A stretch of 32,000 bases of DNA from Pseudoalteromonas tetraodonis (GCF_002310835.1 NZ_CP011041.1:2910001-2942000), one strand, 5' to 3'. Positions 1 to 22,381 are shown, numbered from the stretch's first letter. Notes: a model not told the origin generated them from the letters alone. Translations and numbers: made by a program.

Positions 1-105
1 ATTACTATTACTGTTTGAGCCAGTACCTTGATATAAACTCAATGCTCCAGCACCAAGTGCTGCCCCAATGATGATGGCAATAATTGTTTTTGTATTCGTT
101 GACAT
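1..105 (-). CDS. 5' end (35 codons) of a membrane-anchored protein that runs off the window. Probably the periplasmic adaptor (membrane-fusion) subunit of a heavy-metal RND efflux pump
   Basis: The ATG at 105-103 overlaps the TAA stop of the upstream outer-membrane factor gene (TAATG), and GGAG lies 7 nt upstream. The translation is MSTNTKTIIAIIIGAALGAGALSLYQGTGSNSNSN: a short tail followed by one hydrophobic helix. The function is inferred only from the usual C-B-A operon order. Confidence 0.4.
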   Translation of the reverse strand, partial: MSTNTKTIIAIIIGAALGAGALSLYQGTGSNSNSN

Positions 106-1532
106 TATTTTTCTCCAAATTGCTGACTGGATAAGTGCTGATTAGTTTTGTGTGAAGTTTGCATCGACTTATGTTCAGCATTTGAGTTAGATTGAGAATG
201 CGCAAAGAAATAGTTGATACGAGCAACTGTTTTAAGTGCGTCAACATCAATTCTTAAAGCTGATATTCTGGTATTTAATTCGGCAATTCTTGCTCGAACA
301 ACTTCGGCAAAATCGCCATCATCATTTGTGTAGGCTGTCAATGACGCTTCTGCTTGGTCATGAGTTTGTTTAAGGAGTTGTTCTTGATAGATAGATTGTC
401 TATCTGATAAGCGTTTAAGCTGTCTTAGTTCTTTTTCTAAAACACTGATCATTTGCTTTGTCAGTAATAGTTTCTCGGTTTTAATAGTCTCTGAATCTGC
501 AATAGAAGCTGCAACTTGCTTATCTTGTCTGTTCTCGGTAAACAAGGGTAAATCAAACGTTACCCCAACAGAAAATAAATCAGCTCGGCTATCACCAGAG
601 GGCATATTGTCGCGATAGGCATAACTAGCATTAACACCCCATTGCGGCTCATATTGCTGTTTGGCTAACTCAATTCCTTTTTCTGAAGCTTTGCGTTTTA
701 TATCAATCGCAAGTATGGCTGGGTGATTCGAAAGCTCCTGAGCCAATAGATTTCTTGAGTAATTAGATGCTTTTAGGACTGTTGGATTATTCAATTGAAT
801 CGAAGGCAATTCTTTTGAGACGCTAAACTCTAATGGTTGCGCGTCAAAGTTGAATGATTCATTCAAACGATCCGCATCGTAAATATGAAGCCACTCATTG
901 AGACGAGCGATTGTCGTTTCTAGTTTCTGCTTTTGCGAAGTTAATCTGTCATCTAACTGCACGATTTCCAACTGAGCACGAATAACATCTTGCTGTCTAG
1001 TTTTACCAACAACGTTTGAATAGCTAGCTTTAGCCACTTCCGCCATCTGCTCAAAGAGAGACCAATCATCTTCAATCAATTTAATAGTTTGTTGGGCTAA
1101 GTAAGCATCTAACCAAAGTTGTGACACTTGGCTTTTCAACTTAGCTTTACGATCCTCTCGTAACAGTGGAAATTTCGTGGACTCAATTTGTAACTGGTCT
1201 TTCTTGATCTCTAGACTGTCGCCTCTCGGAAACATTTGAGAGACGCCAACCTTTAGCTGAGTCATTCCTTCCTGATCTAAATCCCAAGTATCTGTTGGTA
1301 AATTCATTATCCCTAGCGATACTTTCGGATCAGGCAAAGTACCTGAAGCAATACTTCTATTTTCAACTGCACTTTGTTTCAATCGGCTACCATGAAGCCA
1401 AGGATCATTTTGCTGAGCTAAGGTGATAGCTTGTTCAAGCGACACTACTTTCTCAGCTTGAGCTGAGAATACAGATAAGCCGAGTATTAATGCAGTTGAA
1501 AGTGAAGTAAGGTTTGAAGAGTTCAATTTCAT
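105..1532 (-). CDS. TolC-family outer-membrane efflux protein (CzcC/CusC-like heavy-metal efflux outer membrane factor)
   Basis: 475-aa ORF with a signal peptide (MKLNSS...SVFSAQA/EK). It shows the long coiled-coil-rich repeats typical of outer-membrane efflux proteins. Both ends are translationally coupled to neighbours by TAATG overlaps at 1532 and 105. It sits beside a DUF411 metal-binding gene. Confidence 0.8.
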   Translation of the reverse strand: MKLNSSNLTSLSTALILGLSVFSAQAEKVVSLEQAITLAQQNDPWLHGSRLKQSAVENRSIASGTLPDPKVSLGIMNLPTDTWDLDQEGMTQLKVGVSQMFPRGDSLEIKKDQLQIESTKFPLLREDRKAKLKSQVSQLWLDAYLAQQTIKLIEDDWSLFEQMAEVAKASYSNVVGKTRQQDVIRAQLEIVQLDDRLTSQKQKLETTIARLNEWLHIYDADRLNESFNFDAQPLEFSVSKELPSIQLNNPTVLKASNYSRNLLAQELSNHPAILAIDIKRKASEKGIELAKQQYEPQWGVNASYAYRDNMPSGDSRADLFSVGVTFDLPLFTENRQDKQVAASIADSETIKTEKLLLTKQMISVLEKELRQLKRLSDRQSIYQEQLLKQTHDQAEASLTAYTNDDGDFAEVVRARIAELNTRISALRIDVDALKTVARINYFFAHSQSNSNAEHKSMQTSHKTNQHLSSQQFGEK

Positions 1533-2029
1533 TAGAATTGCTCCTCGTATGTCTTAACTTTTGCATAGACTTTGCTCGTTCCATCTTTAAATAGAATTAA
1601 CACGTTGTATGGCATAAAGCGGTCATCGACTTCCATACCGGGAGAGCCAACTGGCATTGCTGGAACTGAAAGCCCAATCGCATTGGGATGTTCTTCTGAT
1701 AAGAACTGCTGAATAAATTTAGCAGGTATATGACCTTCAAAGGCAAATCCATTTCTACTCACTGCCGTGTGGCATGAACGGTAATTAGGTTTGATACCAT
1801 ACTTAGTTTTGATGTTGCCGATGTTTCGGAAATCTTTGGAATGCGCAACGATCCCTTTGTCTTCAATATGAGTTATCCATTTTTTACAACACCCACAAGT
1901 AGGGGTTTTATAAACGATTAACTCCAAAGGTGTTACGTCGTTATTGTGTGCATGGTTATGTTCGTTGGCGTTTGCAAACGCAGGTGAAAGCAGCATTACT
2001 ACTGCTATTTTTAAATACTTATTGATCAT
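1532..2029 (-). CDS. DUF411 (CopG-like) periplasmic metal-binding protein
   Basis: 165 aa with a signal peptide and a His-rich stretch (NEHNHAHN). It carries the family-typical motifs TCGCCKKW, SCHTA, EGHIPA and VPAMPVGSPGME. Its stop overlaps the start of the efflux outer-membrane factor gene. Confidence 0.8.
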   Translation of the reverse strand: MINKYLKIAVVMLLSPAFANANEHNHAHNNDVTPLELIVYKTPTCGCCKKWITHIEDKGIVAHSKDFRNIGNIKTKYGIKPNYRSCHTAVSRNGFAFEGHIPAKFIQQFLSEEHPNAIGLSVPAMPVGSPGMEVDDRFMPYNVLILFKDGTSKVYAKVKTYEEQF

Positions 2030-2136
2030 TTTTGCCCCCAGACATCGCTGGAAAATATCTATAGCGCTACGACGCTATATTGACTAACAGAAAAATTAAT
2101 TACATGTGCGAGAAATTTGGACGCACTAATCCTGTA

Positions 2137-2496
2137 TTAGGCAAAAATTGGTGGACGATAAAGGGAAGTGGAAATTGAATGAGGTTGTTTAGATTGCAGA
2201 GCAGCTACAGATTCACTGAATATTTGAATATCTGTCGAATCAATACTGGAATTTAGGACTGTCGTAGATGAGCAAGCATTTGCAGGACAAATACATTCAA
2301 CGTCACAACAATCTTCTGATTGACCATTACTGCTTTTATTCATATCACCATGATCCATGTTCATGTTCATGTTCATGTGTGATTCGTGAGAACCTGATGA
2401 CATTTCGCAAGGCATAGCAGAATACGCAAATGCTTGCCCTACAAAGGCAACCAGCATAAGCGTCATTACTAAGACTTTTGAAAATGCTTTAGACAT
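2137..2496 (-). CDS. Secreted Cys/His/Met-rich small protein, putative metal-binding (CopL-like; tentative)
   Basis: 119 aa with a signal peptide (MSKAFSKVLVMTLMLVAFVGQAFA). It contains an HESHMNMNMNMDHGDM Met/His tract, a CCDVECICPANAC Cys cluster and a C-terminal YRPPIFA. It lies in the metal-resistance context. The family name comes from memory and is not verified. Confidence 0.55.
   Translation of the reverse strand: MSKAFSKVLVMTLMLVAFVGQAFAYSAMPCEMSSGSHESHMNMNMNMDHGDMNKSSNGQSEDCCDVECICPANACSSTTVLNSSIDSTDIQIFSESVAALQSKQPHSISTSLYRPPIFA
2356..2378. repeat. Hexanucleotide tandem repeat (CATGTT) x3.8 inside the Cys/His/Met-rich gene
   Basis: Read directly as catgtt catgtt catgtt catgt. On the minus strand it encodes the in-frame MNMNMNM tract. 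Confidence 0.9.
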
Positions 2497-2524
2497 AAAA
2501 TTCTCTTACAAATATACATCTCTA

Positions 2525-2553
2525 ATACTAATGCAAATTTTTGACTAAGTCAA
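2525..2553 (-). promoter_or_regulatory. Putative sigma-70 promoter for the 2137-2496 gene
   Basis: The minus strand reads TTGACT, a 17-nt spacer, then TAGTAT, ending about 28 nt before the ATG. The -35 element lies inside the 13-bp palindrome TTGACTAAGTCAA (2541-2553). This is an AT-rich region, so the prediction is weak. Confidence 0.35.
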
Positions 2554-2675
2554 TTGATGCTGTATAAACATTTATGAATATTTGATTATCGTCAAATTTT
2601 TCAAAGAGGTAAGTGACAAATAATAATCTCATCAGACTTCTTATCTTCGCTATTCAATGGCTTTTATTTTGAGAC

Positions 2676-2945
2676 TTAAGTTGCTCTCTCATTTCTAAAA
2701 CTCGATCTGCCGAATAAGCTCCTGCTCTCATAACAACTCCCACTATGTGTGTATATTTCTAACTTATCCTCATCAGCAGATTTGCTAACAATCTTTGAAG
2801 TCACGATTTGCTGAAATGGCCGAAACCTGAATGTTTCATCTTCAATAACCCCCCCTGATAAAAACTCGCCAAGAAATATTTTTTCAAATTCTTTATAGTC
2901 GTAAACAGATACTATGTAGGCATCCTTTAAATATATTCTATCCAA
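2676..2945 (-). CDS. Hypothetical small protein, paralogue of the 105-aa protein upstream. It is apparently frameshifted near 2731; the corrected ORF would be 2654-2945, about 96 aa
   Basis: TTG start preceded by AAGGGA 5 nt upstream, 12 nt after the stop of the upstream gene. The N-terminus (RIYLKDAYIVSV) resembles the 105-aa protein (RVKLTNAKLISI). The motif matching the paralogue C-terminus is found only in a shifted frame. Confidence 0.55.
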   Translation of the reverse strand: MDRIYLKDAYIVSVYDYKEFEKIFLGEFLSGGVIEDETFRFRPFQQIVTSKIVSKSADEDKLEIYTHSGSCYESRSLFGRSSFRNERAT

Positions 2946-2957
2946 CGTATTCCCTTA

Positions 2958-3275
2958 CTAATAACTAGCCGGGAGCATATCTCGCAGCTCTAATAACTCA
3001 TTAGGAGAATACATACACTCATGCATTAAATTAAACTCAAATGCATTTACATCAAACTCTTTAGATTCAGCATCTAAGATATAAAAGTCAACACCAAAGC
3101 ACTTACTTTCTAGACCATTGATTTCCAAAACCTTTATCGTGAATAAAGCATCTCCTTCTTTACCATTTTCATTTTCGTCAGCAAATGTGCCGTAAAGCAC
3201 CCGTTCAACTTTTTCCTCTGTATCAGATTGAATTGAGATAAGTTTTGCGTTGGTTAGTTTTACTCTAGGTCTCAT
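2958..3275 (-). CDS. Hypothetical protein, 105 aa, no recognisable family
   Basis: The ATG is preceded by AAGGAG 7 nt upstream. An ATGA overlap (3272-3275) joins it to the stop of the 345-aa gene. It has a tandem paralogue immediately downstream. Confidence 0.75.
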   Translation of the reverse strand: MRPRVKLTNAKLISIQSDTEEKVERVLYGTFADENENGKEGDALFTIKVLEINGLESKCFGVDFYILDAESKEFDVNAFEFNLMHECMYSPNELLELRDMLPASY

Positions 3276-4309
3276 GCTTGAACTCCTTTCATATCTTCTA
3301 CAGAAAAAGGACGAAAAAAACTTAGATATTTAACCCCATCAACTTTAAGCAAATTGTTGTCAGCATCAAAATGTGACAGAACACTAGATTGATACAACGA
3401 AATGTATTTTTCATAATCGATTGTGTTAAAAAAGTTGGTATCAACGCGCCTCGCATAAAAAACAAGATCTTGCTGTTCGATACGAACAATGAACTTCTGA
3501 TCGCCATCTAGATTTTTGACTCGTAGACATAAATCAGGTTTGTGCCAATCAGATACAAAGGAAGGAATCAATGGGAAGCCATATACCAAATAGCGCATAC
3601 CTTCGATTTTGAAGGTTGTTGGATTGAACTGAGCCTTATTTACTTTGCCGCTACTGAATAATTCAAGTGTCAACACCAGCCAGTGCACATGCTTAGAAAA
3701 TGTATTTCCTTCAGAAATACAGCCTTCAAACTCACCATTATGGTTTACATGATTGATGTACATGTATTTTCTAATGTCATCCAAGGAAAGCTTTTCAAAC
3801 GGAAACTTGCAAGCGATTAGCCTGAAATAACAACCATGAACTTTTAAATCTGCATATTGAACTATCAACGGATCATCAAAGGCATCAAAGTATGGTCGCC
3901 ACTCTAAGCGGAAGTCTGCACCTGTATTTACAATAAACTTGGCATTTTCAGGCAACCCTAAAACTTGGTATATCACTGAAACTAACTCTAATGTTTCGAT
4001 ATCTACCAGCATCAGGCTTTCAATACGGTTTGCCATTGACTCAATTTCTTTATGAAGCGATTCAATAATTTCTTGATCATCGTATTCGTTGATCATTAAA
4101 TATTTCAGGGAATCGTGCTTTAGAATTGAGTCCAGCTTTTTCTTTTCAAATACTTCAGAGAGATATTTATGGGTATCAGAAAAATGAGGGCAGTTATAAA
4201 CACCTCTAGCCCACAGGCCTTGGGCGTAAAGATCAGGAAACTCTAATAACTCAGCAAACTCTTTTGCTTGTTTATTGAGCTTATTCTTTAATTGATAAAG
4301 TGAGATCAC
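3272..4309 (-). CDS. Hypothetical protein, 345 aa, no recognisable family. Its N-terminal module of about 35 aa is shared with the 120-aa protein at 4518-4880
   Basis: GTG start with GGAG 6 nt upstream. It is a long ORF in AT-rich DNA and is translationally coupled to the next gene. I see no transmembrane segment or signal peptide. Confidence 0.8.
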   Translation of the reverse strand: MISLYQLKNKLNKQAKEFAELLEFPDLYAQGLWARGVYNCPHFSDTHKYLSEVFEKKKLDSILKHDSLKYLMINEYDDQEIIESLHKEIESMANRIESLMLVDIETLELVSVIYQVLGLPENAKFIVNTGADFRLEWRPYFDAFDDPLIVQYADLKVHGCYFRLIACKFPFEKLSLDDIRKYMYINHVNHNGEFEGCISEGNTFSKHVHWLVLTLELFSSGKVNKAQFNPTTFKIEGMRYLVYGFPLIPSFVSDWHKPDLCLRVKNLDGDQKFIVRIEQQDLVFYARRVDTNFFNTIDYEKYISLYQSSVLSHFDADNNLLKVDGVKYLSFFRPFSVEDMKGVQA

Positions 4310-4470
4310 TTAGTTCTCCAAACAACTTTCCAATAAACAATGGCCTACCAACACATTGCTTTATTTATTGTTCAAATAACCAAATTTTTACGGATGCTCC
4401 GCTTCACTGTTCACGTTTTTCAAGGCGAAAAACATGTGTAGGTGTAGGCTGTCCGCACAACCTTTCACTC

Positions 4471-4498
4471 ATAATATCGCTAAATTTTTAAATGGCAA
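4471..4498 (-). promoter_or_regulatory. Putative sigma-70 promoter for the 345/105/96-aa operon
   Basis: The minus strand reads TTGCCA (4498-4493), a 16-nt spacer, then TATTAT (4476-4471). This would give a leader of about 155 nt before the GTG at 4309. Confidence 0.35.
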
Positions 4499-4517
4499 CT
4501 TACGGATTTGTACAAAA

Positions 4518-4880
4518 TCAGTCAGAAATTTTGGCTTTGAACTCATCAAAGCTAAGTCCGAAAAGGGATATGACTAATTCTTCATTTATATTGGAACCGG
4601 GAAATTTTTTTTCAAAATTTCCAATGATGCTATCTAGGTGGCTAGCTAATATTTTTACTAAAAATATTTCCGAGTTTGGTGAGAGAGCAGACAGTGCTAT
4701 CAATGGGTTGTCAAAGGATTCAGCTTTTATTTTTACTAGTAAATCGCTGTAACTGTTACAGTCATACAGACAAATAGCTAGGGCTTCTTGGGCTTGTCCA
4801 AGGGGAATAGTTAATAATTTAGATAATCGTTTTGCCTGCCTTTTTATATTTACTAGCAGGTCTTCTTTATTAAAAGACAT
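4518..4880 (-). CDS. Hypothetical protein, 120 aa, no recognisable family. Its N-terminal module is homologous to that of the 345-aa protein
   Basis: The track ORF is 4518-4916. I prefer the ATG at 4880 (MSFNKEDLL...) because it places the shared IKRQAKRLSKLL...YSD module at the same offset from the N-terminus as in the 345-aa protein. The Shine-Dalgarno sequence is only weak (GGTG). Confidence 0.7.
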   Translation of the reverse strand: MSFNKEDLLVNIKRQAKRLSKLLTIPLGQAQEALAICLYDCNSYSDLLVKIKAESFDNPLIALSALSPNSEIFLVKILASHLDSIIGNFEKKFPGSNINEELVISLFGLSFDEFKAKISD

Positions 4881-5002
4881 CAATACACCAAAAAACGGCA
4901 ACGCTAGGCCACGCACCTATGTCACTCAGTTTTTGTGAATATTTAATCTTTTAGTTCAGAGTAAATCCATTTCGTCCTGTTTTCGTGGGAACGGGCTTCT
5001 CT

Positions 5003-5028
5003 GAAAAGCCACTGCAAAAAGCAGTGGC
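5003..5028 (-). terminator. Rho-independent terminator of the PIN-PhoH gene
   Basis: The minus strand reads GCCACTGC TTTTT GCAGTGGC followed by TTTTC. It is a perfect 8-bp GC-rich stem, 45 nt after the stop at 5073. Confidence 0.75.
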
Positions 5029-5072
5029 TATTGTCGCAATATTATAAGGAAATGTGAATTGTAGTTTGATGC

Positions 5073-6455
5073 CTACATGTTCTTTTCAGTGAATTCAGCC
5101 AAGCTACTACGCTCTACTTCATCAAATATCAATACTGAGCCTTTTTCATAGTTTCTATACACGTTAACAGCCGCGCTAGCACCTGAAGATGCGGGTGTGA
5201 CAAACTTATCATCAATCTGGGCTAAGTTGCCCAACACGATTGTGCGACAATTTTTGCCACCACGGCTTAACATGCCCTTAATTTGCGCTCTAGTCATGTT
5301 TTGAGCTTCATCAATGATTAAAACAGCATCGTCTATTGAACGACCTCGGAAGTAAGCCATACTAGTAAATTCTATATTGGCTTTTTCGATCACATGCTCA
5401 ACAGTTGCACTAATATTACCTTCATTGTTATCACCTGAATGCATTGATATAAGCGCATCTGTTATACCTGCTAATAACGGCATTGATTTCTCTGTCAGGT
5501 CACCGGGTAAAAACCCCGGATCATCGTCCATAAAGTCTCTGGAGCGCACCACAACGATTTTTTTGTACTTTTTTAACTCCAATACTTGATGCAGCGCCGA
5601 AGCAACTGCTAAAAAAGTTTTTCCGGAGCCAGCAGGGCCAAGGATGATATTTAAGTCATAATATGGATCTGTTAATTGGCTTAAAGCTACTGCCTGACGC
5701 TGATTTTTAGGCAAAATGCCCCATACTTTTTCTTGTTTACGAGGCAATAACTTTGTGAATACCTCAGTATCTGTTACTTCTGAAATTCGCCCAATGTGTC
5801 CAGCTTCATCGTACCAATACATGTTTGGCTGAACTTCATCATTAAATAGACTTATTGGGAAAGTATAAACTTCTCCTGAAACCTTGAAGTCTTTGTCTGA
5901 TTTAATTCGATCAAAAAGATCTCCTTTAAAGGCTTGTACCCCTGTGTATAAAAGATCAATATCTGATATTTGATTATCTACGGCAACGTCTTCTGCCATG
6001 ACCCCTACGGTTCGAGCTTTCAAGCGCATATTAATGTCACGGCTAACAATTACTACGTCTTTATCTAAGTCCTTCTGAAGATACAGTGCATAGTTAATTA
6101 TTCTATTGTCAGCGTCACTTCCAATACCGTGCTTTAACTCTTTAGCCATATCGAGCTGGGTATCAATTCCAATAAACAGTTTTCCTCGTTTAGCTGTTTC
6201 AGTAGAAGGCAGTGGAATACCAGCTTCCATCTCTTCTGCACTGTGCCCATTGATTATATCTTCAAGCATACGAATACATACACGAGCATCAGCACTAACC
6301 GATTTGTTAGTTCTTTCTTTTAAGTTATCTAATTCTTCTAGAACTGTTAGACAGATGTAAATATCATCTTGATATGACAGGATACTTTTTGGATCATGAA
6401 CCAACGCAGACGTGTCAAGAACACGAGGGTTTCGGTTTTCAACAGAGCTTTTCAT
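5073..6455 (-). CDS. PIN-domain plus PhoH-like P-loop NTPase fusion (PhoH2/YlaK-type), full length
   Basis: PIN acidic residues lie in VLDTSAL, LEELD, DNRIIN and SRDINMRLKA. Walker A is GPAGSGKT and Walker B is LIIDEAQN. I prefer the ATG at 6455 (MKSSVENRN) because GGAGGG lies 7 nt upstream; the track start at 6470 is a less likely alternative. Confidence 0.9.
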   Translation of the reverse strand: MKSSVENRNPRVLDTSALVHDPKSILSYQDDIYICLTVLEELDNLKERTNKSVSADARVCIRMLEDIINGHSAEEMEAGIPLPSTETAKRGKLFIGIDTQLDMAKELKHGIGSDADNRIINYALYLQKDLDKDVVIVSRDINMRLKARTVGVMAEDVAVDNQISDIDLLYTGVQAFKGDLFDRIKSDKDFKVSGEVYTFPISLFNDEVQPNMYWYDEAGHIGRISEVTDTEVFTKLLPRKQEKVWGILPKNQRQAVALSQLTDPYYDLNIILGPAGSGKTFLAVASALHQVLELKKYKKIVVVRSRDFMDDDPGFLPGDLTEKSMPLLAGITDALISMHSGDNNEGNISATVEHVIEKANIEFTSMAYFRGRSIDDAVLIIDEAQNMTRAQIKGMLSRGGKNCRTIVLGNLAQIDDKFVTPASSGASAAVNVYRNYEKGSVLIFDEVERSSLAEFTEKNM

Positions 6456-7813
6456 GACGCAGCCCTCCAAAAGTTTGCATCGTTGCTAGAATGCGTGTTG
6501 TACTTACATCCCAAATAACAAATACTCTGTAAAGATTGGCTATTGTGGGAATGCTTAAAGTCGTTACAAAAATCCATGTTTAGAGAAATTCTTTTTACTT
6601 TTTCTACAGGCCAATAAAAACAAGGGGGTAAAAACTTTAAAATCTTTCCAATTCGGGGTTGTAAAATCACCACCGCATTTTGAATACTACGTCCGCGCAT
6701 AAAGTTCACCGACTTAAACTGAATATTGGCTTTTTCCATAATGTAATTACGGCTCGAAATTGGGTTTTCATCACCTTTATGCAGCACTTCTAAGGTATCG
6801 GTTATGGCAGCCAACCAAGGCGCCATTTTTTCTTCCTCGGTACCAGGCAAAAAGCCAATTGATTCTGCAATTTCAGGGGTATTACGGGTTACAATGACTT
6901 TGTCGTAAATACCTTTTTCAATCACCATCTCTAGCGCACACGCAAGTGCCAGTAAAGTTTTACCACATCCCGCAGGGCCGGTTAAAATAACAAGCTCAAT
7001 AGACGTGTCGAGCAAGGCATCAAGAGCCATTGCTTGGTAAATATTTTTTGGCTTTATTCCCCATGCACTTTGATGCATCAATCGCTCTGCACCAATATCT
7101 TTAATGGTAATATGCTCACCATCATACGATTTAACTCTAGCGGCAAACTGATCGCCATCATCAAGTAAATATTCATTACAAAACACATCAGGAATTAAAT
7201 CTTTAGGGATATGATGAACTGTTTCACGTCCGTGTTGCTCAGTATTACACTGGCCGACATGCTGCCAAAAATCGCCCTCAATTTTTTTATGACCACTGGT
7301 GAGTAAATCAATATCGTCAATTAATTGATCAGTACGATAGTCTTCAACATATTTAAGCCCCGCCCCTTTGGCTTTTAAGCGCATGTTAATATCTTTAGTT
7401 ACTAATATGACTTTTTTATCGCTGTGCTGGTTTTGTAAATGCACCGCACAATTAATAATACGGTGGTCGTTTTCATTGCCCGGCAAACCAGAAATAGAAT
7501 CGGCAAATAAATGGTCGTTTACAATAATTAAGCTGCCTGTCGATCCGCCTTGTTTATTCCTTGGCAGCGCCACACCTTGTAACATTTGTTCGGGAGTTGC
7601 CTGACTCAACACCCCATCAAGGCCACGAATAGCCACTCGCGCATCGCGGCTCACATCGTGTTTTCTATCTTTTATATGATCAAGTTCTTCCAATACGGTC
7701 ATTGGGATAACAACTTGGTGCTCTTGGAATGACAAATACGCGAGGGGTTCGTGAAGTAATACATTGGTATCTAGCACATACATTTTACTATCAAAATTTG
7801 AAGCTTTTCCCAT
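6452..7813 (-). pseudogene. Truncated PIN-PhoH-like gene. The homologous part is 6662-7813 (384 codons), followed by a 69-codon unrelated tail
   Basis: The PIN motifs (VLDTNVL, LEELD, DHRIIN, TKDINMRLKA) and Walker A (GPAGCGKT) are present. Similarity to the paralogue stops at ...RGRSIQNAVVIL, where DEAQN should follow. No frame downstream encodes Walker B or the PhoH C-terminus of about 80 aa. Confidence 0.8.
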
Positions 7814-7916
7814 AGTACTTTCCTTACGTTTTATGATTTTTATGCTATACCCAATAAACTAATCAGTGGTTACTAATAAACTTGATTAATTACTTAGGTA
7901 TAATTTGAGTTTAGTC

Positions 7917-7949
7917 TATTTGTCATAAAAGTCTGTTTTATGACAAATA
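7917..7949. repeat. Perfect 14-bp inverted repeat with a 5-nt spacer, in the divergent intergenic region between the truncated PIN-PhoH gene and rapA
   Basis: Read directly as TATTTGTCATAAAA gtctg TTTTATGACAAATA. Confidence 0.85.
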
Positions 7950-8112
7950 TCATTTAGTTTGAATTTTCCACAAAATCGACGCACTAATGAGCGCTTAGGG
8001 TTGGTAATAATTCATACTTATAAAATTAATTAAAAGTCAGGCAAATAGCGCCTTGCAGTGGTGTTATCTAACAGGTAACATAGCCGCCTTTTTCTTCATA
8101 GACGAGACATAC

Positions 8113-11007
8113 ATGAATTTTTCCTTAGGTCAGCGTTGGATAAGTGACACAGAGTCAGATTTAGGATTGGGCACCGTTGTTGCCATTGATGGCCGCCAAG
8201 TCAGCATTTTATTTCCTGCCAGTGGTGAAAACCGTGTTTATTCTTCTGCAGAAGCTCCGGTAACCCGCGTAGCATTTAATCCTGGTGATGTGATCCGAAG
8301 CGTTGAGGAGTGGGAATTACAAGTTGAGTCTATTGAAGTACAGGGTGAGTTATTGTGCTATCACGGTGAACGTGTTGATAACGGTGAAAAAGCACAATTA
8401 AAAGAAACTTTTTTAGATCACTTTATCAAGTTCAATAAACCGCAAGACCGCTTATTTGCAGGCCAAGTGGACCGTTTTGATCGGTATACTTTGCGCTATC
8501 AAACTTGGTTACATCAGTTTGAACGTCAGCAGTCACCTATTAAAGGCTTAATTGGTCAACGCGCTAATCTTATTCCGCATCAGCTTTATATTGCTCAAGA
8601 AGTCGGTAAACGTTTTGCACCGCGGGTATTACTGTCTGATGAAGTAGGCTTAGGTAAAACCATCGAAGCGGGCATGATTTTACATCAACAAATTATCACC
8701 GGTCGTGCCAGCCGTGTACTTATTGTTGTGCCTGAGAACTTACAACACCAATGGTTAGTAGAAATGCTACGCCGTTTTAATTTACGTTTTTCTATTTTTG
8801 ATGAAGAACGCTGCGACGAAGCGTTTGCTGATTCACCTAATGTATTTGATACCGAGCAATTGGTGCTTACTAGCCTTGAGTTTTTAACCAAGAAAAAACG
8901 CTGGTTTGAACAAGCTACGTTGGCCGACTGGGATTTATTAGTAATCGATGAAGCGCATCATTTAAGCATTAATAACAATAAACCCAGTGCTGAATACCAA
9001 CGTATGGCTGAGCTGAGCCAAGATATTCCAGGGCTAATTCTTCTTACCGCTACGCCAGACCAACTGGGTCATCGTAGTCATTTTGCTCGTTTACAACTGC
9101 TCGACCCAGATCGTTTTTACGACTATGACGTGTTTAAAGAAGAAGAAGCAAACTACAAAGACGTTGCCGAAGCTGCTAATCAGTTATTACAAGAACAAGC
9201 ACTGGATGACAGCGCAAAGGGCACATTAATTGAGCTATTAAAAGAAACAGATATCACCGATATCCTTGAAAAAGCCCAACAAGGCGACCTTGCTGCACGC
9301 AAAGAAATACTCAATATGTTATTAGATCGCCATGGCACTGGACGCATATTATTTAGAAATAGCCGCAGTGGCATTGATGGCTACCCTAGCCGTAAATTAC
9401 ATGCCTACCCAATGGCATTACCTAAGCAATACAAAACAGCAATGACCGTACTGGGTAATATGAGTGGCATTCAAAATGCCGAACTCAGTGCGCAACGTGC
9501 ACTTTTCCCTGAAAAAATATTTCAAGAATTTGAAGGTGAAAGCGCAAGTTGGGGATTATTTGACCCCCGTGTAGATTGGCTAATCGAAACGCTAAAAACA
9601 CTCAAGCGTGAAAAAGTACTGCTTATTTGTGCTAAAGCCGAAACAGCAATTAGCTTGGAGCAAATATTACGTGAACGCGAAGCAATTAAAGCCTCTGTGT
9701 TCCACGAGGGCATGTCGATTATTGAACGTGATCGCGCTGCGGCATTCTTTGCCGATGAATACGATAACGCACAAATATTACTGTGTTCAGAAATTGGTTC
9801 AGAAGGTCGTAACTTCCAGTTCTCACATCACTTAGTGTTATTTGATTTACCACTCAACCCCGATTTACTTGAGCAACGTATTGGTCGATTAGACCGTATA
9901 GGGCAAACACAAGATGTGAACATTCACGTGCCTTACTTTGAAAACACAGCACAAGAAGTACTACTGCGTTGGTATAACGAAGGCTTAGATGCGTTTGAAA
10001 GCACATCAACCACTGGGCAGTTGCTGTATAAAGAGTTTAGCGAAGATTTACTTGAGTACATTGCAGCTCATAATTGTGATGAAGATGAGCTAGATCCACT
10101 CCTTGAGCAAGTAGCACAGAAAAATGCAGTATTACGCAAACAAATGGAAAGTGGTCGAGATCGCTTACTAGAGCTACATTCATCGGGACAAGGTGCTGCT
10201 GACTCACTTGTAGCTGACATTGAAAAGCTCGATAACCAGTTTGAACTGCCAAGCTACATGATCAACGTGTTCGACACCTTTGGTGTAAGCCAAGAAGATA
10301 AAGGTGAAAACACCATTATTTTAAAGCCCACTGAGCACATGTTAAACGCTTCGTTCCCATCGCTAAAAGACGATGGTATGACAGTAACCTTTGACCGCGA
10401 TACCGCGCTTTCTCAGGAAGATGTGCACTTTATTAGTTGGGATCACCCTATGGTGCAAGGCACTATGGATATGATTTGTGATGATGATTTTGGTAGTTCA
10501 TCGGTGGCGTTACTTAAAAACAAAAAGTTACCACCAGGCACCTTTTTTGTTGAGCTAATATTTGTTGCCGAAGCCATGGCACCAAAAGTCCTGCAAGTGG
10601 GTCGCTTTTTACCCCCTACGCCAATTCGTATTTTACTCGATAAGAGCAGTAATAACTTAGGTGAAAATGTTGGTTTTGATGGCTTTAATCAGCAACTATC
10701 TGCGGTAGGTCGTCAAACAGCAAGTAAATTAGCCGGTGCATTGCAAAGTGCGGTTCATCCAATGATCAATACCGCAAAAGACATGGCGCAACAAAAGCTG
10801 GATGTTATTCGTGCCGAGTCATTAGCAAAAATGCAAACATCGTTGAGCGAAGAGCAACAGCGATTAGTTGCACTGAAACAAATTAATCCAAACATTCGCC
10901 AAGAGGAAATTACCTTTTACGATAAACAACGCAATGAGCTCACCGCACATATTGAAAAAGCGCAGTTAAAACTCGATGCGATTCGTTTGATTGTGGTTTC
11001 GCACTAG
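8113..11007 (+). CDS. rapA: RNA polymerase-associated Swi2/Snf2 ATPase RapA
   Basis: The N-terminus MNFSLGQRWISDTESDLGLGTVV closely matches the E. coli RapA N-terminus as I recall it. DEAH-type helicase motifs are present (GLGKT, LLVIDEAHH), and the length is about 965 aa. I chose the ATG at 8113 rather than the track start at 8053. Confidence 0.95.
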   Translation: MNFSLGQRWISDTESDLGLGTVVAIDGRQVSILFPASGENRVYSSAEAPVTRVAFNPGDVIRSVEEWELQVESIEVQGELLCYHGERVDNGEKAQLKETFLDHFIKFNKPQDRLFAGQVDRFDRYTLRYQTWLHQFERQQSPIKGLIGQRANLIPHQLYIAQEVGKRFAPRVLLSDEVGLGKTIEAGMILHQQIITGRASRVLIVVPENLQHQWLVEMLRRFNLRFSIFDEERCDEAFADSPNVFDTEQLVLTSLEFLTKKKRWFEQATLADWDLLVIDEAHHLSINNNKPSAEYQRMAELSQDIPGLILLTATPDQLGHRSHFARLQLLDPDRFYDYDVFKEEEANYKDVAEAANQLLQEQALDDSAKGTLIELLKETDITDILEKAQQGDLAARKEILNMLLDRHGTGRILFRNSRSGIDGYPSRKLHAYPMALPKQYKTAMTVLGNMSGIQNAELSAQRALFPEKIFQEFEGESASWGLFDPRVDWLIETLKTLKREKVLLICAKAETAISLEQILREREAIKASVFHEGMSIIERDRAAAFFADEYDNAQILLCSEIGSEGRNFQFSHHLVLFDLPLNPDLLEQRIGRLDRIGQTQDVNIHVPYFENTAQEVLLRWYNEGLDAFESTSTTGQLLYKEFSEDLLEYIAAHNCDEDELDPLLEQVAQKNAVLRKQMESGRDRLLELHSSGQGAADSLVADIEKLDNQFELPSYMINVFDTFGVSQEDKGENTIILKPTEHMLNASFPSLKDDGMTVTFDRDTALSQEDVHFISWDHPMVQGTMDMICDDDFGSSSVALLKNKKLPPGTFFVELIFVAEAMAPKVLQVGRFLPPTPIRILLDKSSNNLGENVGFDGFNQQLSAVGRQTASKLAGALQSAVHPMINTAKDMAQQKLDVIRAESLAKMQTSLSEEQQRLVALKQINPNIRQEEITFYDKQRNELTAHIEKAQLKLDAIRLIVVSH

Positions 11008-15445: not shown

Positions 15446-17692
15446 ATGAGCAAAACCTGGGGCATTTTGATGCTAAGCGTACTGAGCGCACCATCGCTTG
15501 CCGAAACTGAACTGACACACAACTTTTGTGGCACTTCAATGCAAACCAGAGCTTGGCAACCGCTTGCTGGCCTTGAGCTTGGAACGGTTGATATCAGCGC
15601 TGATGACGTTGAGCTTTTAGGCACACAAAGCGCTGAATTTACTGGCAATGTTGATATTAACACCGTTAACATGAGTTTGTCCGCACAATCAGCACTGATT
15701 GATAAACAACGTGGCCTGCTTAATGCCACTGGCCCAATTACCTATCGCGATTATGTAAGCCACGTACAAAGTTCGGGCTTAAATGCCGATTTAAATAACT
15801 CAGCATTTAGTTTATTAGGCGCACAATACAGCCTAACACAACAACAAGGTAAAGGCGGCGCGGAAAAGCTCACCATCGATAAGTCTGGCTTAATGCTGAT
15901 GAATGCAAGCTTTACTGCGTGCCCAGGTAATACGCCTGTGTGGGCTATTGAAGCCGATGAAATAAACTTATCACGTGAAGAAGGCTGGGGCGAAACCTAC
16001 AATGCCGTGCTACGTATTTTAGATACGCCAGTACTCTATTTACCTTATTTTACTTTCCCACTCGATGAGCGCCGTAAGTCAGGCTTATTAACGCCCAGCT
16101 TTTCAAGTTCAGATCGCTATGGGTTAGAAACGATTACGCCTTATTATTGGAATATTGCCCCTAATTATGATGCCACTATTACCCCGCGTTATATGTCACG
16201 TAAAGGGCTACAGTTACAAACTGAATTTAGATATTTAACCCCAGAGCACCAAGGTTTAGTGGCTGTAGAATATTTAAATAATGATGACTCAGAGCCTGAA
16301 CTTAACGAGCGCTTTTTGTTTCATTGGCAACAAAAAAGTTATATTGGTGAAGACTGGCGAGCCAGTATTGATATTACCAATGTTAGTGATGACAACTACC
16401 TAACTGATTTAAACTCCGCTTATGCCAGTAAAACCGATACGCAGCTTTATCGCACCGGCTCGCTAACTCATATGGGCGAAATGTGGCGTACTGATATAAA
16501 AGTGCAAAACTTTGAAGTACTCGGTGACCACTTAGAATCATACACGGCGTTACCACAAATTAGCTTTACCCAAACTACCCCATGGAAAATTGATTATTTC
16601 GACTTTAGTGTTTCAGGCGAGCTGAGCCATTTTACTAACAGCTCTGCGGTAATTGACCAAGCTACTCGGGTGCACATCGAACCTAAAGCACGCTTTGATT
16701 ACAAAGAGTATGCCTGGTCATTTTTATCTGAAGTGAGCTTATTGCAAACTAACTATAAACAAGACGGTGATTTACAGGGTACACAGTATAGCGATAATGT
16801 TTCGCGTACTTTGCCTAAAGTGCGCTTATATTCTCAGCTTAACTTTGAGCGCGACACCTCAATTTTTATTGACGATGGTATTCAAACTCTAGAGCCACAA
16901 ATTCAGTATTTATATACGCCTAATAAAGATCAGTCTGACATTGGCTTATACGATACCACCAAGTTACAAGATGACTTTTTTGGTTTATTCAGGGATGCGC
17001 GTTTTTCAAGTGTTGACCGAATTGCCGCAGCTAATCAATTTACGCTCGGGGCTACAACGCGTTTATTTGATAAGAAAAATGAAGAAGTATTTAACTTCAG
17101 CGCAGGCCAAATATTTTATTTAAGTGATTCAGCCAAGCCTACAGAGCAAGGGCTTAATAGCGATAGTAACTACAATGCCTTGTTTGCAGCGCAAACCATG
17201 TTACATTGGCACCGCCGCTGGTATTTATCGGGTGGTATTCAGTACGACACGGATGGCAAGCAAATTATCCAGTCAAATTTAACCTTAGACTACAAAGGTG
17301 ACGATAATCAGCTGGTTCAATTGAACCATCGCTATGCAAATGATGTCTCAGGAAATACAATCGAGCAAGCGGGCTTATTTACAAGCATCCCTATCAGTGA
17401 CGAGTGGCAATTTATTGCAAGTTACCATCGCGATCTTGATAATAACCGCAGTATTGAAGTATTTAGTGGATTACAGTATGAATCGTGCTGTTGGGCGTTC
17501 CAAATTACTGGCCATCGCCAAATTGAAACTGATTTAAATCAGTCAATTGGGCAACCCCAAGCCACTTTTGATTCGAGTATTCGTTTGAATTTTGTATTAA
17601 AAGGGCTTGGTAGTAAAAGCCGTTACGATGCTCAAAAATTATTACAACAAGGTATTTTTGGTTATCGTAGGCCGTATTTTCTTAATGACTAA
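15446..17692 (+). CDS. lptD: LPS-assembly outer membrane protein LptD
   Basis: 748 aa with a signal peptide and a large beta-barrel sequence. It lies directly upstream of surA-pdxA-rsmA-apaG-apaH, as in enterobacteria and pseudomonads. Confidence 0.95.
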   Translation: MSKTWGILMLSVLSAPSLAETELTHNFCGTSMQTRAWQPLAGLELGTVDISADDVELLGTQSAEFTGNVDINTVNMSLSAQSALIDKQRGLLNATGPITYRDYVSHVQSSGLNADLNNSAFSLLGAQYSLTQQQGKGGAEKLTIDKSGLMLMNASFTACPGNTPVWAIEADEINLSREEGWGETYNAVLRILDTPVLYLPYFTFPLDERRKSGLLTPSFSSSDRYGLETITPYYWNIAPNYDATITPRYMSRKGLQLQTEFRYLTPEHQGLVAVEYLNNDDSEPELNERFLFHWQQKSYIGEDWRASIDITNVSDDNYLTDLNSAYASKTDTQLYRTGSLTHMGEMWRTDIKVQNFEVLGDHLESYTALPQISFTQTTPWKIDYFDFSVSGELSHFTNSSAVIDQATRVHIEPKARFDYKEYAWSFLSEVSLLQTNYKQDGDLQGTQYSDNVSRTLPKVRLYSQLNFERDTSIFIDDGIQTLEPQIQYLYTPNKDQSDIGLYDTTKLQDDFFGLFRDARFSSVDRIAAANQFTLGATTRLFDKKNEEVFNFSAGQIFYLSDSAKPTEQGLNSDSNYNALFAAQTMLHWHRRWYLSGGIQYDTDGKQIIQSNLTLDYKGDDNQLVQLNHRYANDVSGNTIEQAGLFTSIPISDEWQFIASYHRDLDNNRSIEVFSGLQYESCCWAFQITGHRQIETDLNQSIGQPQATFDSSIRLNFVLKGLGSKSRYDAQKLLQQGIFGYRRPYFLND

Positions 17693-17788
17693 ACTGCTTT
17701 ATTTATAGTAAAAATTTACAAATAACTATATCAATTTAGCCGTATTTAGCATTACAACAGTACTATTAGTAAGAGTAGTAAAAAGAAT

Positions 17789-19084
17789 ATGAATTTAAAA
17801 AAATTATTAACATCAGCAGTTTTAACGTTCAGCTTATGCCAAAGTGCATTTGCCGCCCCTGTCGAAATAGATAAAGTAATTGGTATTGTAAACCAAGGCG
17901 TTATTTTAAAAAGTGAAGTTGACACCATTGTTGATCGCGTAAAAAAACAAGCAGAAGAACAAAACCAACAGCTGCCAAAAGACGAAACACTGCGTGTTCA
18001 GGCGATTGAGCGTTTAGTAAATCAAACCTTGATGATGCAGATGGCTGAGCGTATGGGCTTAGAAATTTCAGATAGCCAGCTTGACCAAACCCTTGCCAAC
18101 ATGGCTAAAGAGCAAGGCGGTACAATTGCTGATTTGCGTCGTACTATTGAAGCATCGGGTGAGAGCTTTCAAGCTTACCGCGAAGAAATTCGTAAAGAGA
18201 TAACCACGCAACAAGTTACGCGTGCAAACGTAGACCGCCGTATATATGTAAGCGACCAAGAAATTGATAACCTACTAAAAATTATGGATAGCCAAGGCCA
18301 AAATGCCGAAGAATATGATATTGGTCATATTCTTATCGATATTCCAAGTGGTGCAAGTGCTGACGACGTAAGCTCAGCAAAAACACGCGCAGACAAAGTT
18401 ATTGAGCTGCTGCAAGACGGCCAAGAATTTAAGCGTATTGCCATTTCATCATCAAGTGGCTCAAAAGCCCTTGAGGGCGGCCAATTAGGCTGGATGGGCA
18501 TTAACGAAATGCCATCGTTATTTGCAGAAGCTGTAAAAGGTAAAAAGAAAGATGCGATTATTGGTCCACTTCGTTCCGGTGCGGGTTTCCACATCATTAA
18601 AGTACAAGACGTACGTGGCCGCCAAGTAGTAGAAACCACTGAAGTTAAATCTCGTCATATTCTTATTAAGCCTTCTATCATTTTAAGTGAAGAAAAAGCA
18701 CGCACTATGCTAGCAGGCTTTGTTAAAGATTTACGCGCCGGCGATGCTGACTTTGCAGAACTTGCTAAAGAGTACTCACAAGACCCCGGTTCAGCACTTA
18801 AAGGTGGTCAATACGATTGGACTGATCCAACCACCTACGTGCCTGCGTTTAGAGATACGTTACTATCACTTGATAAAAACGAAATCAGCGAACCATTTAG
18901 AAGTCAGTTTGGCTGGCACATTGTGCAGTTACTAGATAAACGTGTTGCAGATAAGACCGAGCAAGCTAAACGTAATCGTGCACATGGCATGTTGTTTAAT
19001 CGTAAATTTAAAGAGGAAAGCTTTAACTGGCAGCAAGAAATGCGCGAACAAGCCCATGTTGAAATTTTCCCAATAGACGAATAA
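17789..19084 (+). CDS. surA: Periplasmic chaperone / peptidyl-prolyl isomerase SurA
   Basis: A signal peptide and two parvulin domains are present (GGQLGWM..., [12 protein letters not shown]). The synteny is conserved. Confidence 0.95.
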
Positions 19085-21270: not shown

Positions 21271-22089
21271 ATGGCCGACTACGCGATAGGTGATTTACAA
21301 GGCTGCTTTGACGAATTTAGTTTATTGTTAAAGCAAGTCGACTTTAACCCTAGCAAAGATCACTTATATTTAGTGGGTGATATTGTCGCTCGCGGCCCAG
21401 ACTCTAAAGCGTGCCTTGATTATATTTATCAACATCAAGACAGCGTTAGCGTCACATTAGGCAATCATGACTTACACATGATTGCCTGTTATTTAAATAA
21501 TGTTACACCTAACCCCAAAGACAGACTCACTGCACTGTTTAACAGTAGTAAACTGCCCCACTACATCGCGTTTTTACAAACTCAGCCTTTAGCACTTTAT
21601 TTAGAACAATATAATTGTTTTATTTCTCATGCAGGCCTTAACCCTGATTGGTCGTGCGCACACGCTATTAAACACGCTCAATTTGCTCAACAGTGTTACA
21701 GTCAAAACAATGCCGAGTTCTATTTTAAAAACATGTATCAGCCTCACCCGCTAAAATGGACTGAGCAACTTGATGATGCTGCTAAATTTCGTTACATCGT
21801 TAATTATTTCACTCGCATGCGCTTTATTACGCCTGATAATTTGCTCGATTTTAATGCAAAAGAAGCAACAACAAATTCATCATCACTAATTCCTTGGTTT
21901 TCTCATCCTGCCATTATGAACGCTCAACATGACCTAATTTTTGGACACTGGGCAGCACTTGAAGGCAAAACGCCCTACAACCACCTTTATGCTCTAGACA
22001 CGGGTTGCGTATGGGGTGGCTCAATGACACTAATAGAACTGCAAAGTAAGCAAAAATTTTCAGAAAAATCACAACTTTTGTCTAAATAA
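21271..22089 (+). CDS. apaH: Bis(5'-nucleosyl)-tetraphosphatase (symmetrical) ApaH
   Basis: The MADYAIGDLQGCFDEF, GDIVARGP, GNHD and GHWA metallophosphatase motifs are present. Confidence 0.93.
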   Translation: MADYAIGDLQGCFDEFSLLLKQVDFNPSKDHLYLVGDIVARGPDSKACLDYIYQHQDSVSVTLGNHDLHMIACYLNNVTPNPKDRLTALFNSSKLPHYIAFLQTQPLALYLEQYNCFISHAGLNPDWSCAHAIKHAQFAQQCYSQNNAEFYFKNMYQPHPLKWTEQLDDAAKFRYIVNYFTRMRFITPDNLLDFNAKEATTNSSSLIPWFSHPAIMNAQHDLIFGHWAALEGKTPYNHLYALDTGCVWGGSMTLIELQSKQKFSEKSQLLSK

Positions 22090-22332
22090 ACTGAAAAAAG
22101 TTAATACATCTGTTAAGTTTAAGAGTGGATGTTAAATTGTATAATTACAAAACATTCACAATAATGTGTAAAAAATAGCAATGCTCTTATAATTGAGTTA
22201 AACATAGACAGTAAACGAGTGTTATTGCCTACATTATTTTTTATCTTTAATAAAAGACTTAGTTTGTAATTAAGTTTTGCGGTAAATTTAGCAACTAACT
22301 ATTAACAGTAAAAATTAATTATTTTTAATTAC

Positions 22333-22359
22333 TTAACTTATTGTTGAAAGCGCCGATAA
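22333..22359 (+). promoter_or_regulatory. Putative sigma-28 (FliA) promoter upstream of the chemoreceptor gene
   Basis: TTAACTTA, an 11-nt spacer, then GCCGATAA, compared with the consensus TAAAGTTT-N11-GCCGATAA. The -10 element matches 8/8 and the -35 element 5/8. It lies about 23 nt upstream of the first ATG. Confidence 0.5.
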
Positions 22360-22381
22360 GTTTTAATAGACGTATTTTTGA

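Follow-up and report, generated by a model that had tools for sequence, protein, structure and literature searches.

A 32,000-nt stretch of Pseudoalteromonas tetraodonis DNA (NZ_CP011041.1:2910001-2942000; 'the window' means this whole stretch throughout) carries what is probably the attR end of a strand-biased circularizing element (SE). The element is lodged in the host's own PIN-PhoH gene, carries a putative surrogate of that gene at its tip and has a separate cassette of orphan genes behind it. A sequence-only reading of the same DNA had described five co-directional genes, namely a complete PIN-PhoH gene and four small orphans, and had joined them into one candidate defence locus. All five are indeed co-directional, lying on the minus strand, and all are under purifying selection, with ratios of nonsynonymous to synonymous substitution (dN/dS) of 0.04-0.29 against orthologues from other genomes. 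We compared the window with loci from other genomes, which are coded L003-L141, and the grouping of the PIN-PhoH gene with the orphans as a defence system was not supported by this comparison.

The element edge and the split host gene

The following features, all on the minus strand, define the edge of the element:
6662-7813, minus: 5′ fragment of the host PIN-PhoH gene (ylaK/PhoH2-like), residues 1 to ~384, from Pfam, the identity break and intact orthologues.
6662-6667, minus: 6-bp spacer ATTTTA on the attR side; the same 6 bp stand at both ends in the PS1M3 genome.
6649-6661, minus: 13-bp terminal inverted repeat, motif C′-like, CAACCCCGAATTG, from a five-genome alignment.
5073-6455, minus: complete PIN-PhoH gene, 460 amino acids (aa), proposed surrogate of the host gene, from Pfam PIN_4 and PhoH.

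The open reading frame (ORF) at 6452-7813 had been called a broken core gene. Broken it is, and it is itself a PIN-PhoH gene, which the sequence-only reading had missed. In Pfam, the host fragment matches PIN_4 and only positions 2-125 of the 205 in the PhoH profile. The host ORF is 39% identical to the complete element copy, in an alignment that ends at residue 381-385, and the gene is cut after ...NAVVIL, directly before the Walker B motif DEAQN (break at residue 384/385). Beyond the break, the host ORF crosses the element end and runs through 69 element codons before it stops at 6452-6454 with a TGA; this stop codon overlaps the start codon of the element PIN-PhoH gene (ATGA, 6452-6455). 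The overlap suggests that translational coupling could let the host promoter drive the element gene. No such overlap between the host ORF and the element PIN-PhoH gene is present in the variants that are inserted at Walker A.

Uninserted genomes have rapA, an intact 465-aa ylaK and a hybrid histidine kinase in this order, which represents the empty site. The window matched a Pseudoalteromonas contig, L007, without a difference, and its identity to strain SM9913 was 99.97%. Scanned in 250-nt steps, positions 1 to ~6660 were ~100% identical in other Pseudoalteromonas species, as against 75-88% for rapA and the 5′ part of ylaK, and the ~100% identity goes on for at least 6.7 kb past the window's left edge. 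By aligning five genomes, we placed the break between island and core at ...GTGATTTTA|CAACCCCGAATTGG...; the terminal repeat CAACCCCGAATTG occurs once in the window (0.02 expected). The accessory, horizontally acquired nature that had been claimed for this patch is borne out. A simple tandem duplication of the PIN-PhoH gene was ruled out by the 39% identity of the two copies and the sharp identity break, and a Tn7-like element by the lack of a TGT end and of any such transposase.

The far end was sought with a genome scan using the C-terminal 79 residues of intact YlaK, which returned 80 loci; an earlier scan that used the N-terminal part of the adjacent histidine kinase gave no loci. Two of the 80 (L038 and L041, from P. 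lipolytica and P. rubra) carry the 3′ ylaK remnant alone, from residue 381. Upstream of the remnant in both, and also in L114, stands CAATTCGGGGGTG, which is complementary to CAACCCCGAATTG at 12 of 13 positions. Inward from this repeat, L038 and L041 encode IntA (496 aa, Phage_integrase), a 927-aa protein without a family, IntB (701 aa, Phage_integrase) and a 154-aa protein, that is, the order intA-tfp-intB-srap. Both junctions could be read in PS1M3, where attR is GTGATTTTA|CAACCCCGAATTG (L003) and attL is CAATTCGGGGGTG|ATTTTA|GATGAA (L114). The two junctions carry the same ATTTTA, lie ~41.6 kb apart and bound an element whose orphan genes are identical to those of the window.

SEs are tyrosine-recombinase transposons of Gammaproteobacteria with a four-gene order, 13-19-bp imperfect repeats, a 6-bp spacer and target specificity (Idola et al. 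2023, PMC10214605). In SEs, recombination of attL with attR yields a circle from one strand, with no empty site left behind. We assign the element to this type because the gene order at the far end in L038 and L041, the repeats, the 6-bp spacer and the fixed target fit the published description. The terminal inverted repeats (motifs C and C′) pair at 12 of 13 positions, a 6-bp spacer stands beside each end (ATTTTA twice in PS1M3), and the target sites are few, the same ylaK nucleotide being used in different species. The 6 bp of attL after the host codons is ATATTA in L038 and ATCCTG in L041. Two further fixed ylaK positions are used by variants with other ends: L013, L103, L105, L108 and L111 are inserted right after Walker A, and L012 after GNLxQID...TP. 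At these other positions the end sequences differ and the internal block is the same. A search of a plasmid database gave no match to the element.

The far ends in P. lipolytica and P. rubra (L038 and L041, positions 1-9996) are 99.9% identical over 10 kb even though the species differ, a second sign of recent spread. In L137 (1-3750), three PIN-PhoH pieces stand in a row, namely a host fragment reaching residue 431, residues 1-296 of an SE-type copy (72% identity) and one SE copy in full, and one SE appears to have inserted inside the surrogate PIN-PhoH gene of another. In Alteromonas sp. 5E99-2 (L012:819-9430), an intA-tfp-intB-srap set, 30-40% identical to that of L038, lies between the surrogate PIN-PhoH gene and the cassette; its order intA-tfp-intB-srap-surrogate mirrors that of SE-6283.

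The element-borne PIN-PhoH gene

The complete PIN-PhoH gene described at 5073-6455 was confirmed by Pfam (PIN_4, E = 5.7e-25; PhoH, E = 1.1e-44). The PIN_4 domain covers residues 17-162 and PhoH residues 252-457 of the 465-aa translation from an upstream TTG (numbers are lower by 5 in the 460-aa protein). Both Walker motifs, A (GPAGSGKT) and B (DEAQN), are present, and the PIN-PhoH architecture is complete. Neither copy reached the 680 bits of the NCBIfam equivalog for the RNA 5′-3′ helicase PhoH2 (NF053827), the element copy scoring 151 and the host fragment 162. With a dN/dS of 0.04-0.06, the element gene is clearly under constraint, and it occupies the element tip in every locus of the SE lineage with enough upstream sequence.

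There is a precedent for such an arrangement, in that SE-6283 has bcp as its insertion target and brings a homologue of bcp with it (Nonaka et al. 2022, PMC9345347). By analogy with this case, the complete PIN-PhoH gene is best explained as a spare copy of the insertion target, not as a defence effector. Our searches of texts and supplements found no mention of PhoH in any paper naming SEs, including the main text of PMC9345347 and PMC10214605. In the mechanism that we favour, the SE would insert into a ylaK/PhoH2-like gene immediately before its Walker B codons, and the divergent but intact PIN-PhoH gene at the element tip would replace the function lost by the insertion. The promoter of the host gene could drive the element copy through the ATGA overlap, and the spare copy would turn a highly conserved gene into a safe landing site.

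The defence or abortive-infection locus of the sequence-only reading would make the PIN-PhoH protein the nuclease/NTPase effector of a multi-gene system, with the orphans as its sensor and regulator parts. The PIN-PhoH gene does adjoin the cassette in each locus of the clade with ≥65% identity that has enough upstream sequence, and defence genes lie nearby in several genomes: BrxR, a type I restriction-modification system and GmrSD in L012; BrxR, a methyltransferase-HNH gene and an MksE-like gene in L011; AbiE in L101. We nevertheless regard this explanation as very improbable. The PIN-PhoH gene is already fully accounted for as the element's own version, carried at its tip, of the host PIN-PhoH gene that the element splits. 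Distant cassettes (L011, L099, L141, L098 and L101) have no PIN-PhoH gene in the available sequence, which covers 3-10 kb. A hairpin and a separate structured leader stand between the PIN-PhoH gene and the cassette, and in L012 and L013 so do 7 kb of other genes. Host ylaK is a single gene with no such partners. PADLOC-DB 2.0, which had been proposed as a check, returned only short generic P-loop matches for the PIN-PhoH protein and nothing meaningful for the orphans. In the proposed test of co-occurrence, homologues of the 345-aa orphan go with a PIN-PhoH gene throughout the SE lineage and stand without one in the available sequence of the distant loci.

The orphan cassette and its leader RNA

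Behind the PIN-PhoH gene, the cassette and the leader in front of it comprise the following features:
5007-5029, minus: 9-bp GC-rich hairpin followed by UUUU; fold of -17.1 kcal/mol, z -3.2.
4948-5016, minus: structured RNA motif in the leader of the 120-aa gene, an irregular hairpin with P1 (6 bp), 2 bp and P2 (4 bp).
4881-4947, minus: 3′ leader with a small hairpin carrying a GC-GUGG loop, a U-rich stretch and TTGGTG before the ATG, from the consensus fold.
4518-4880, minus: 120-aa protein, free-standing paralogue of the N-terminal helical domain of the 345-aa protein, from alignment.
4471-4498, minus: promoter-like site TTGCCA-16-TATTAT between the 120-aa and 345-aa genes, a consensus match at 10 of 12 positions.
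3272-4309, minus: 345-aa protein with a predicted helical N-domain and alpha/beta C-domain, from an AlphaFold2 model.
2958-3275, minus: 105-aa acidic protein (isoelectric point, pI, 4.5), paralogue of the 115-aa type, in ATGA overlap with the 345-aa gene.
2654-2945, minus: gene of the 115-aa type, a pseudogene in the window, from comparison with SM9913 and relatives.

The four small products had been put forward as real genes without a family. Both statements held: dN/dS was 0.08-0.29 where dS was unsaturated, the quoted ribosome-binding sites are present, and searches of Pfam, NCBIfam, PADLOC and PHROGs with all orphans gave nothing usable, the products being related to one another. The internal homology that had been noticed is supported by two matches. 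First, there is similarity between the N-terminal part of the 345-aa protein and the 120-aa protein (E = 3e-5), and the latter aligns over its whole length to residues 1 to ~122 of the 345-aa family. Second, the 105-aa protein matches the intact 115-aa paralogue (E = 9e-8). A profile-profile test showed no relation between the small proteins and the C-domain of the 345-aa protein. The N-terminal module that the 120-aa and 345-aa proteins share may resemble a widespread 'KxQAKxL...' domain at the N-terminus of some proteins of the glyoxalase superfamily, a possible resemblance to which we give no weight.

The 120-aa ORF at 4518-4880 was confirmed, its start being backed by homologues of 119-121 aa; the same lengths disfavour a GTG start that would give 132 aa. 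Its dN/dS is 0.09-0.29, it has no match in Pfam, NCBIfam or PADLOC, and it lies beside a gene of the 345-aa family in loci of the window's type as well as in L012, L013, L098, L099, L102 and L141. Of the tightly coupled trio that had been proposed, the 345-aa (3272-4309) and 105-aa (2958-3275) genes are joined by an ATGA overlap as described, and the 105-aa gene has a dN/dS of 0.17. The third member, said to be of about 96 aa and to end at 2654, does not exist in that form. It was a mixture of two reading frames, and 2654 belongs to the old stop codon of a 115-aa gene. In the window, this gene is frameshifted by a 56-nt deletion between 9-nt direct repeats GTTGTTATG (~2729-2738), which leaves an open frame of 89 aa (2676-2945) short of the original stop at 2654-2656. 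The 115-aa form is intact in SM9913 and most relatives. Its family comprises 35 clusters, all from Alteromonadales, and the 115-aa type matches phrog_11960 (E = 7.6e-6), a PHROG without an assigned function. The small cassette proteins are acidic (pI 4.5-5.2). In L106 (7180-8217), the 345-aa gene is split into ORFs of 226 and 108 aa. Because the 115-aa gene is broken in the window and the 345-aa gene is split in L106, the cassette is dispensable in at least some resident copies.

The 345-aa family is also limited to Alteromonadales, with 21 clusters among 5.8e9 proteins and 40 representatives among 1.84e9. An AlphaFold2 model built from 34 sequences, distant relatives included, reached a mean predicted local distance difference test score (pLDDT) of 88.9 and a predicted template modelling (TM) score of 0.85; an earlier run with 17 close sequences had given a pLDDT of 58, which makes its Foldseek result meaningless. 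With the better model, Foldseek found no fold match (best E = 0.039 against PDB and 0.034 against BFVD, TM ≤0.2). Pfam matched none of the 34 family members, no hit below E = 0.04 came from PDB sequence profiles with any of the three protein families, and PADLOC-DB 2.0 returned only Csn2 for the 345-aa protein (E = 5.6e-4 over 88 residues) and no match for the 89-aa, 105-aa and 120-aa proteins. Across the family, Q14, Y38 and G244 are conserved, and G118, W137, R163, Y240 and R333 are kept in at least 90% of members; none is a typical catalytic residue. Because so few residues are conserved and none is of catalytic type, the pattern points to a probable binding or scaffolding role for the 345-aa protein rather than an enzymatic one.

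Between the PIN-PhoH gene and the 120-aa gene, a strong terminator had been placed at 5003-5028. We did find a stable hairpin at ~5007-5029 (-17.1 kcal/mol, z -3.2), but its U-tract is only UUUU and a terminator scan made no call there. The hairpin is either the terminator of the PIN-PhoH gene or the 5′ stem of the leader, whose RNA motif its 3′ arm enters. By eye, an equivalent hairpin of other sequence is present in L141 and L098; L012 and L013 lack it and carry an insert of other DNA at the same point.

The RNA motif itself stays conserved across loci that share no more than 30-47% identity in their proteins. RNAalifold predicted 12 pairs, of which four show compensatory changes and none is broken. 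All 84 of the 84 cells are paired, none of 500 shuffles reached the observed values, and slid registers of the motif fell to 23-46% paired. Based on seven sequences, this covariation is supportive, not conclusive. A covariance model gave one match per cassette locus, with position and strand constant throughout (71-83 bits), and no match in 24 control loci. Searching 2400-6800 on either strand against Rfam yielded no match at E ≤1. In L099 and L101, divergent versions of the leader, recognized by eye, stand ahead of the first gene of the cassette. The 161-nt leader as a whole folds at -52.2 kcal/mol (z -4.5), and the region of the start codon is paired in the minimum-energy fold. In the 3′ leader, the consensus hairpin shows compensatory changes in five of six pairs, with some cells broken, and there is a terminator-like call at 4912-4895.

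Every locus of the ≥65%-identity clade with enough upstream sequence has a split ylaK, the surrogate PIN-PhoH gene, the 120-aa and 345-aa genes, the 105-aa and/or 115-aa gene, and variable cargo. The cargo behind the cassette is of several types, namely cus/cop genes, a bacteriocin-type exporter, restriction-modification with GmrSD, and metabolic genes. The block of PIN-PhoH, 120-aa, 345-aa and 105-aa (and 115-aa) genes is kept with other cargo in L012, L013, L102/L103, L132 and L105, and it occupies three different insertion positions within ylaK. Cassettes with no PIN-PhoH gene in the available sequence encode proteins of 129, 361 and 126 aa in L141; of 119, 346, 112 and 130 aa in L098; of 130, 380 and 100 aa in L099; and of 340 and 116 aa in L011, where they lie in an island with P4-type integrases. 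In L101, also without PIN-PhoH, a 562-aa relative adjoins AbiE genes. The SE lineage thus keeps the cassette while its cargo changes, and other mobile elements carry the cassette too. L011 (P. piscicida) lacks both the 120-aa gene and the RNA motif, and a (CAAA)n microsatellite of ~12 units (9450-9500) lies upstream of its 340-aa cassette gene. We considered the genes upstream of the L141 cassette as recombinases and dropped the idea, their only match being weak (E = 0.023) and Pfam giving none. In the viral contigs of IMG/VR, neither the cassette nor the leader motif was found.

This distribution bears on what the cassette might be by itself. One possibility, to which we give some credence while doubting it, is a stand-alone conflict module (defence, anti-defence or toxin-antitoxin-like) that moves as cargo. 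At least three contexts speak for it, namely SEs, the P4-type integrase island of L011, and contigs with AbiE or small orphan genes, as do the narrow and patchy taxonomic range, the low GC content, the acidity of the small proteins, the gene decay in resident copies and the pair of paralogous domains, which suggests an inhibitor and its target. Its weak points are that no function came from PADLOC, Pfam or PHROGs, that the 345-aa family has no conserved residues of catalytic type, that IMG/VR viral contigs contain none, and that the neighbours are metal-resistance or metabolic genes as often as defence genes. A defence role for the cassette is neither supported nor excluded, and no result shows a defence system here.

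The cassette might also be a lineage-specific helper for copy-out, integration or maintenance of the element, with the leader RNA as a control point. This would agree with its retention on the attR side among SE variants of differing ends, insertion position and cargo, with its frequent place next to recombinase genes or element ends (L012, L011), and with its decay where the SE core has decayed too; the basic helical N-domain, as predicted, could bind nucleic acid. We think such a helper unlikely, however, since the cassette is also present outside SEs and matches no DNA-binding family.

Within the interpretation that we favour for the stretch as a whole, an SE end with a surrogate PIN-PhoH gene, the cassette would serve mobile elements as an accessory module that is self-contained and regulated through its leader. 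Of its products, the 120-aa protein would either form a pair with the 345-aa protein's N-domain or compete for it, and the small acidic proteins would be partners within the cassette. We lean towards a regulatory role or one in element-host conflict, rather than an enzymatic one. Taken further, the leader RNA and the 120-, 345-, 105- and 115-aa proteins might together form an undescribed mobile-element module with a new fold and a new cis-regulatory RNA (ligand- or protein-sensing). Such a module would act in element-host conflict or in the control of SE mobility, and would long have been kept by a lineage of SEs that target one host gene at its conserved NTPase motifs and supply a replacement for it. 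This fuller picture is speculative, and we offer it tentatively.

Points against, known systems and significance

Several observations weigh against the reading of the stretch as an SE end with surrogate and cassette. The evidence for the far end comes from sister genomes, and both ends were read in PS1M3 alone. An insertion sequence has truncated the intA of PS1M3 to 246 aa, and its tfp, intB and srap are missing; a published SE screen counts 0 tfp-srap blocks in the SM9913 chromosome. The window's copy may accordingly be an immobile remnant, in which case the ~100% identity across species would call for another explanation. L012 does not fit the simple layout, its SE core genes lying between the PIN-PhoH gene and the cassette; nor is there space before its cassette for an element end or a ylaK remnant. 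Complementation by the surrogate, which shares only 39% identity with the host protein, is something we infer, and within the SE lineage the PIN-PhoH gene and the cassette are always found together. Finally, two cassette genes are inactivated in some strains, and the mechanism proposed for the cassette is inference only.

As an observation in its own right, the PS1M3 far end (L114:10001-15300, AP022624.1) contains the truncated intA, three transposase genes of insertion-sequence type and a KAP NTPase fragment, with CDF and czcCBA cargo beyond that fragment. The same truncated intA was found on 14 contigs.

On the near side, the cassette is followed by the cargo of the same element, again on the minus strand:
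1-2500, minus: start of the metal-resistance cargo, which continues off-window.
2137-2496, minus: CopL-like cargo gene.
1532-2029, minus: DUF411 cargo gene.
105-1532, minus: CusC-type OEP cargo gene.

Off-window, the cargo goes on with CusBA, CopCD and a multicopper oxidase. Because the same cargo is present without the orphans in L109 and L113, we place a module boundary at ~2500-2650. The low GC content that had been estimated from a few lines was confirmed, the orphan block having 35.7% as against 40.8% ± 1.6% in core windows of the same size, none of which was as low. Elsewhere in the core, 22001-22500 and 17501-18000 have an unusually low GC content (0.27 and 0.33), and there is a local change of GC skew at 22001-22500.

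Like SE-6283 and other SEs (PMC9345347, PMC10214605), the element has intA-tfp-intB-srap at one end (as seen in L038 and L041), short imperfect terminal repeats, a 6-bp spacer, strict target choice, a GC content below that of the chromosome, and hosts among marine Gammaproteobacteria, Pseudoalteromonas included. The spare gene, too, has its counterpart in the bcp homologue that SE-6283, with bcp as target, carries beside its core genes. Unlike in published SEs, the target is a PIN-PhoH gene and is entered at no fewer than three positions, every one of which coincides with or adjoins a conserved NTPase motif. The surrogate stands at the intA-distal tip, unlike that of SE-6283, the element is ~41.6 kb long with copper, silver, zinc and mercury resistance as cargo, and the core module is decayed in the one genome read at both ends. 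GInt, RIT and Tn554 elements similarly combine several genes of tyrosine-recombinase type with a small auxiliary protein and target specificity, and Tn554 has a 6-bp footprint (PMC10214605). The order found here, a recombinase, a large non-catalytic protein, a large recombinase and a small protein, is that of SEs and not that of GInt (ginA, ginB, ginC, ginD), and Tn554 has no counterpart of tfp.

Other elements, such as SXT/R391 (in prfC) and dusA-specific islands, also insert in a conserved housekeeping gene and offset the cost with element sequence. They supply only a new gene end, fused in frame, whereas a whole divergent gene (39% identical) is supplied here. Mycobacterial PhoH2, an RNA helicase/RNase (NF053827), has the same PIN_4 and PhoH architecture with intact Walker A and B motifs, but in our case there is no toxin-antitoxin-like partner gene, and the gene is a duplicate of a host gene at a transposon tip. 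The cassette resembles the defence, anti-defence and toxin-antitoxin systems of PADLOC-DB 2.0 and the leaders of Rfam in being a small mobile multi-gene cassette with a paralogous-domain pair and a structured 5′ leader. It differs in that no model convincingly matches its proteins and no Rfam family matches its leader.

With this reading, the tandem PIN-PhoH pair and the 'broken core gene' that are widespread in Pseudoalteromonas would be accounted for by the element, and a vehicle would be identified for a copper, silver, zinc and mercury resistance island that is nearly unchanged between species. It would be the second, and clearer, case among SEs, after SE-6283, of inserting in a conserved gene and bringing a spare. 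Three target positions that code for conserved motifs, together with the nested element, make the choice of target and the idea of an offset cost directly testable. The orphan cassette and its leader RNA, compact, conserved and with no known relatives, are a reasonable target for the discovery of function.

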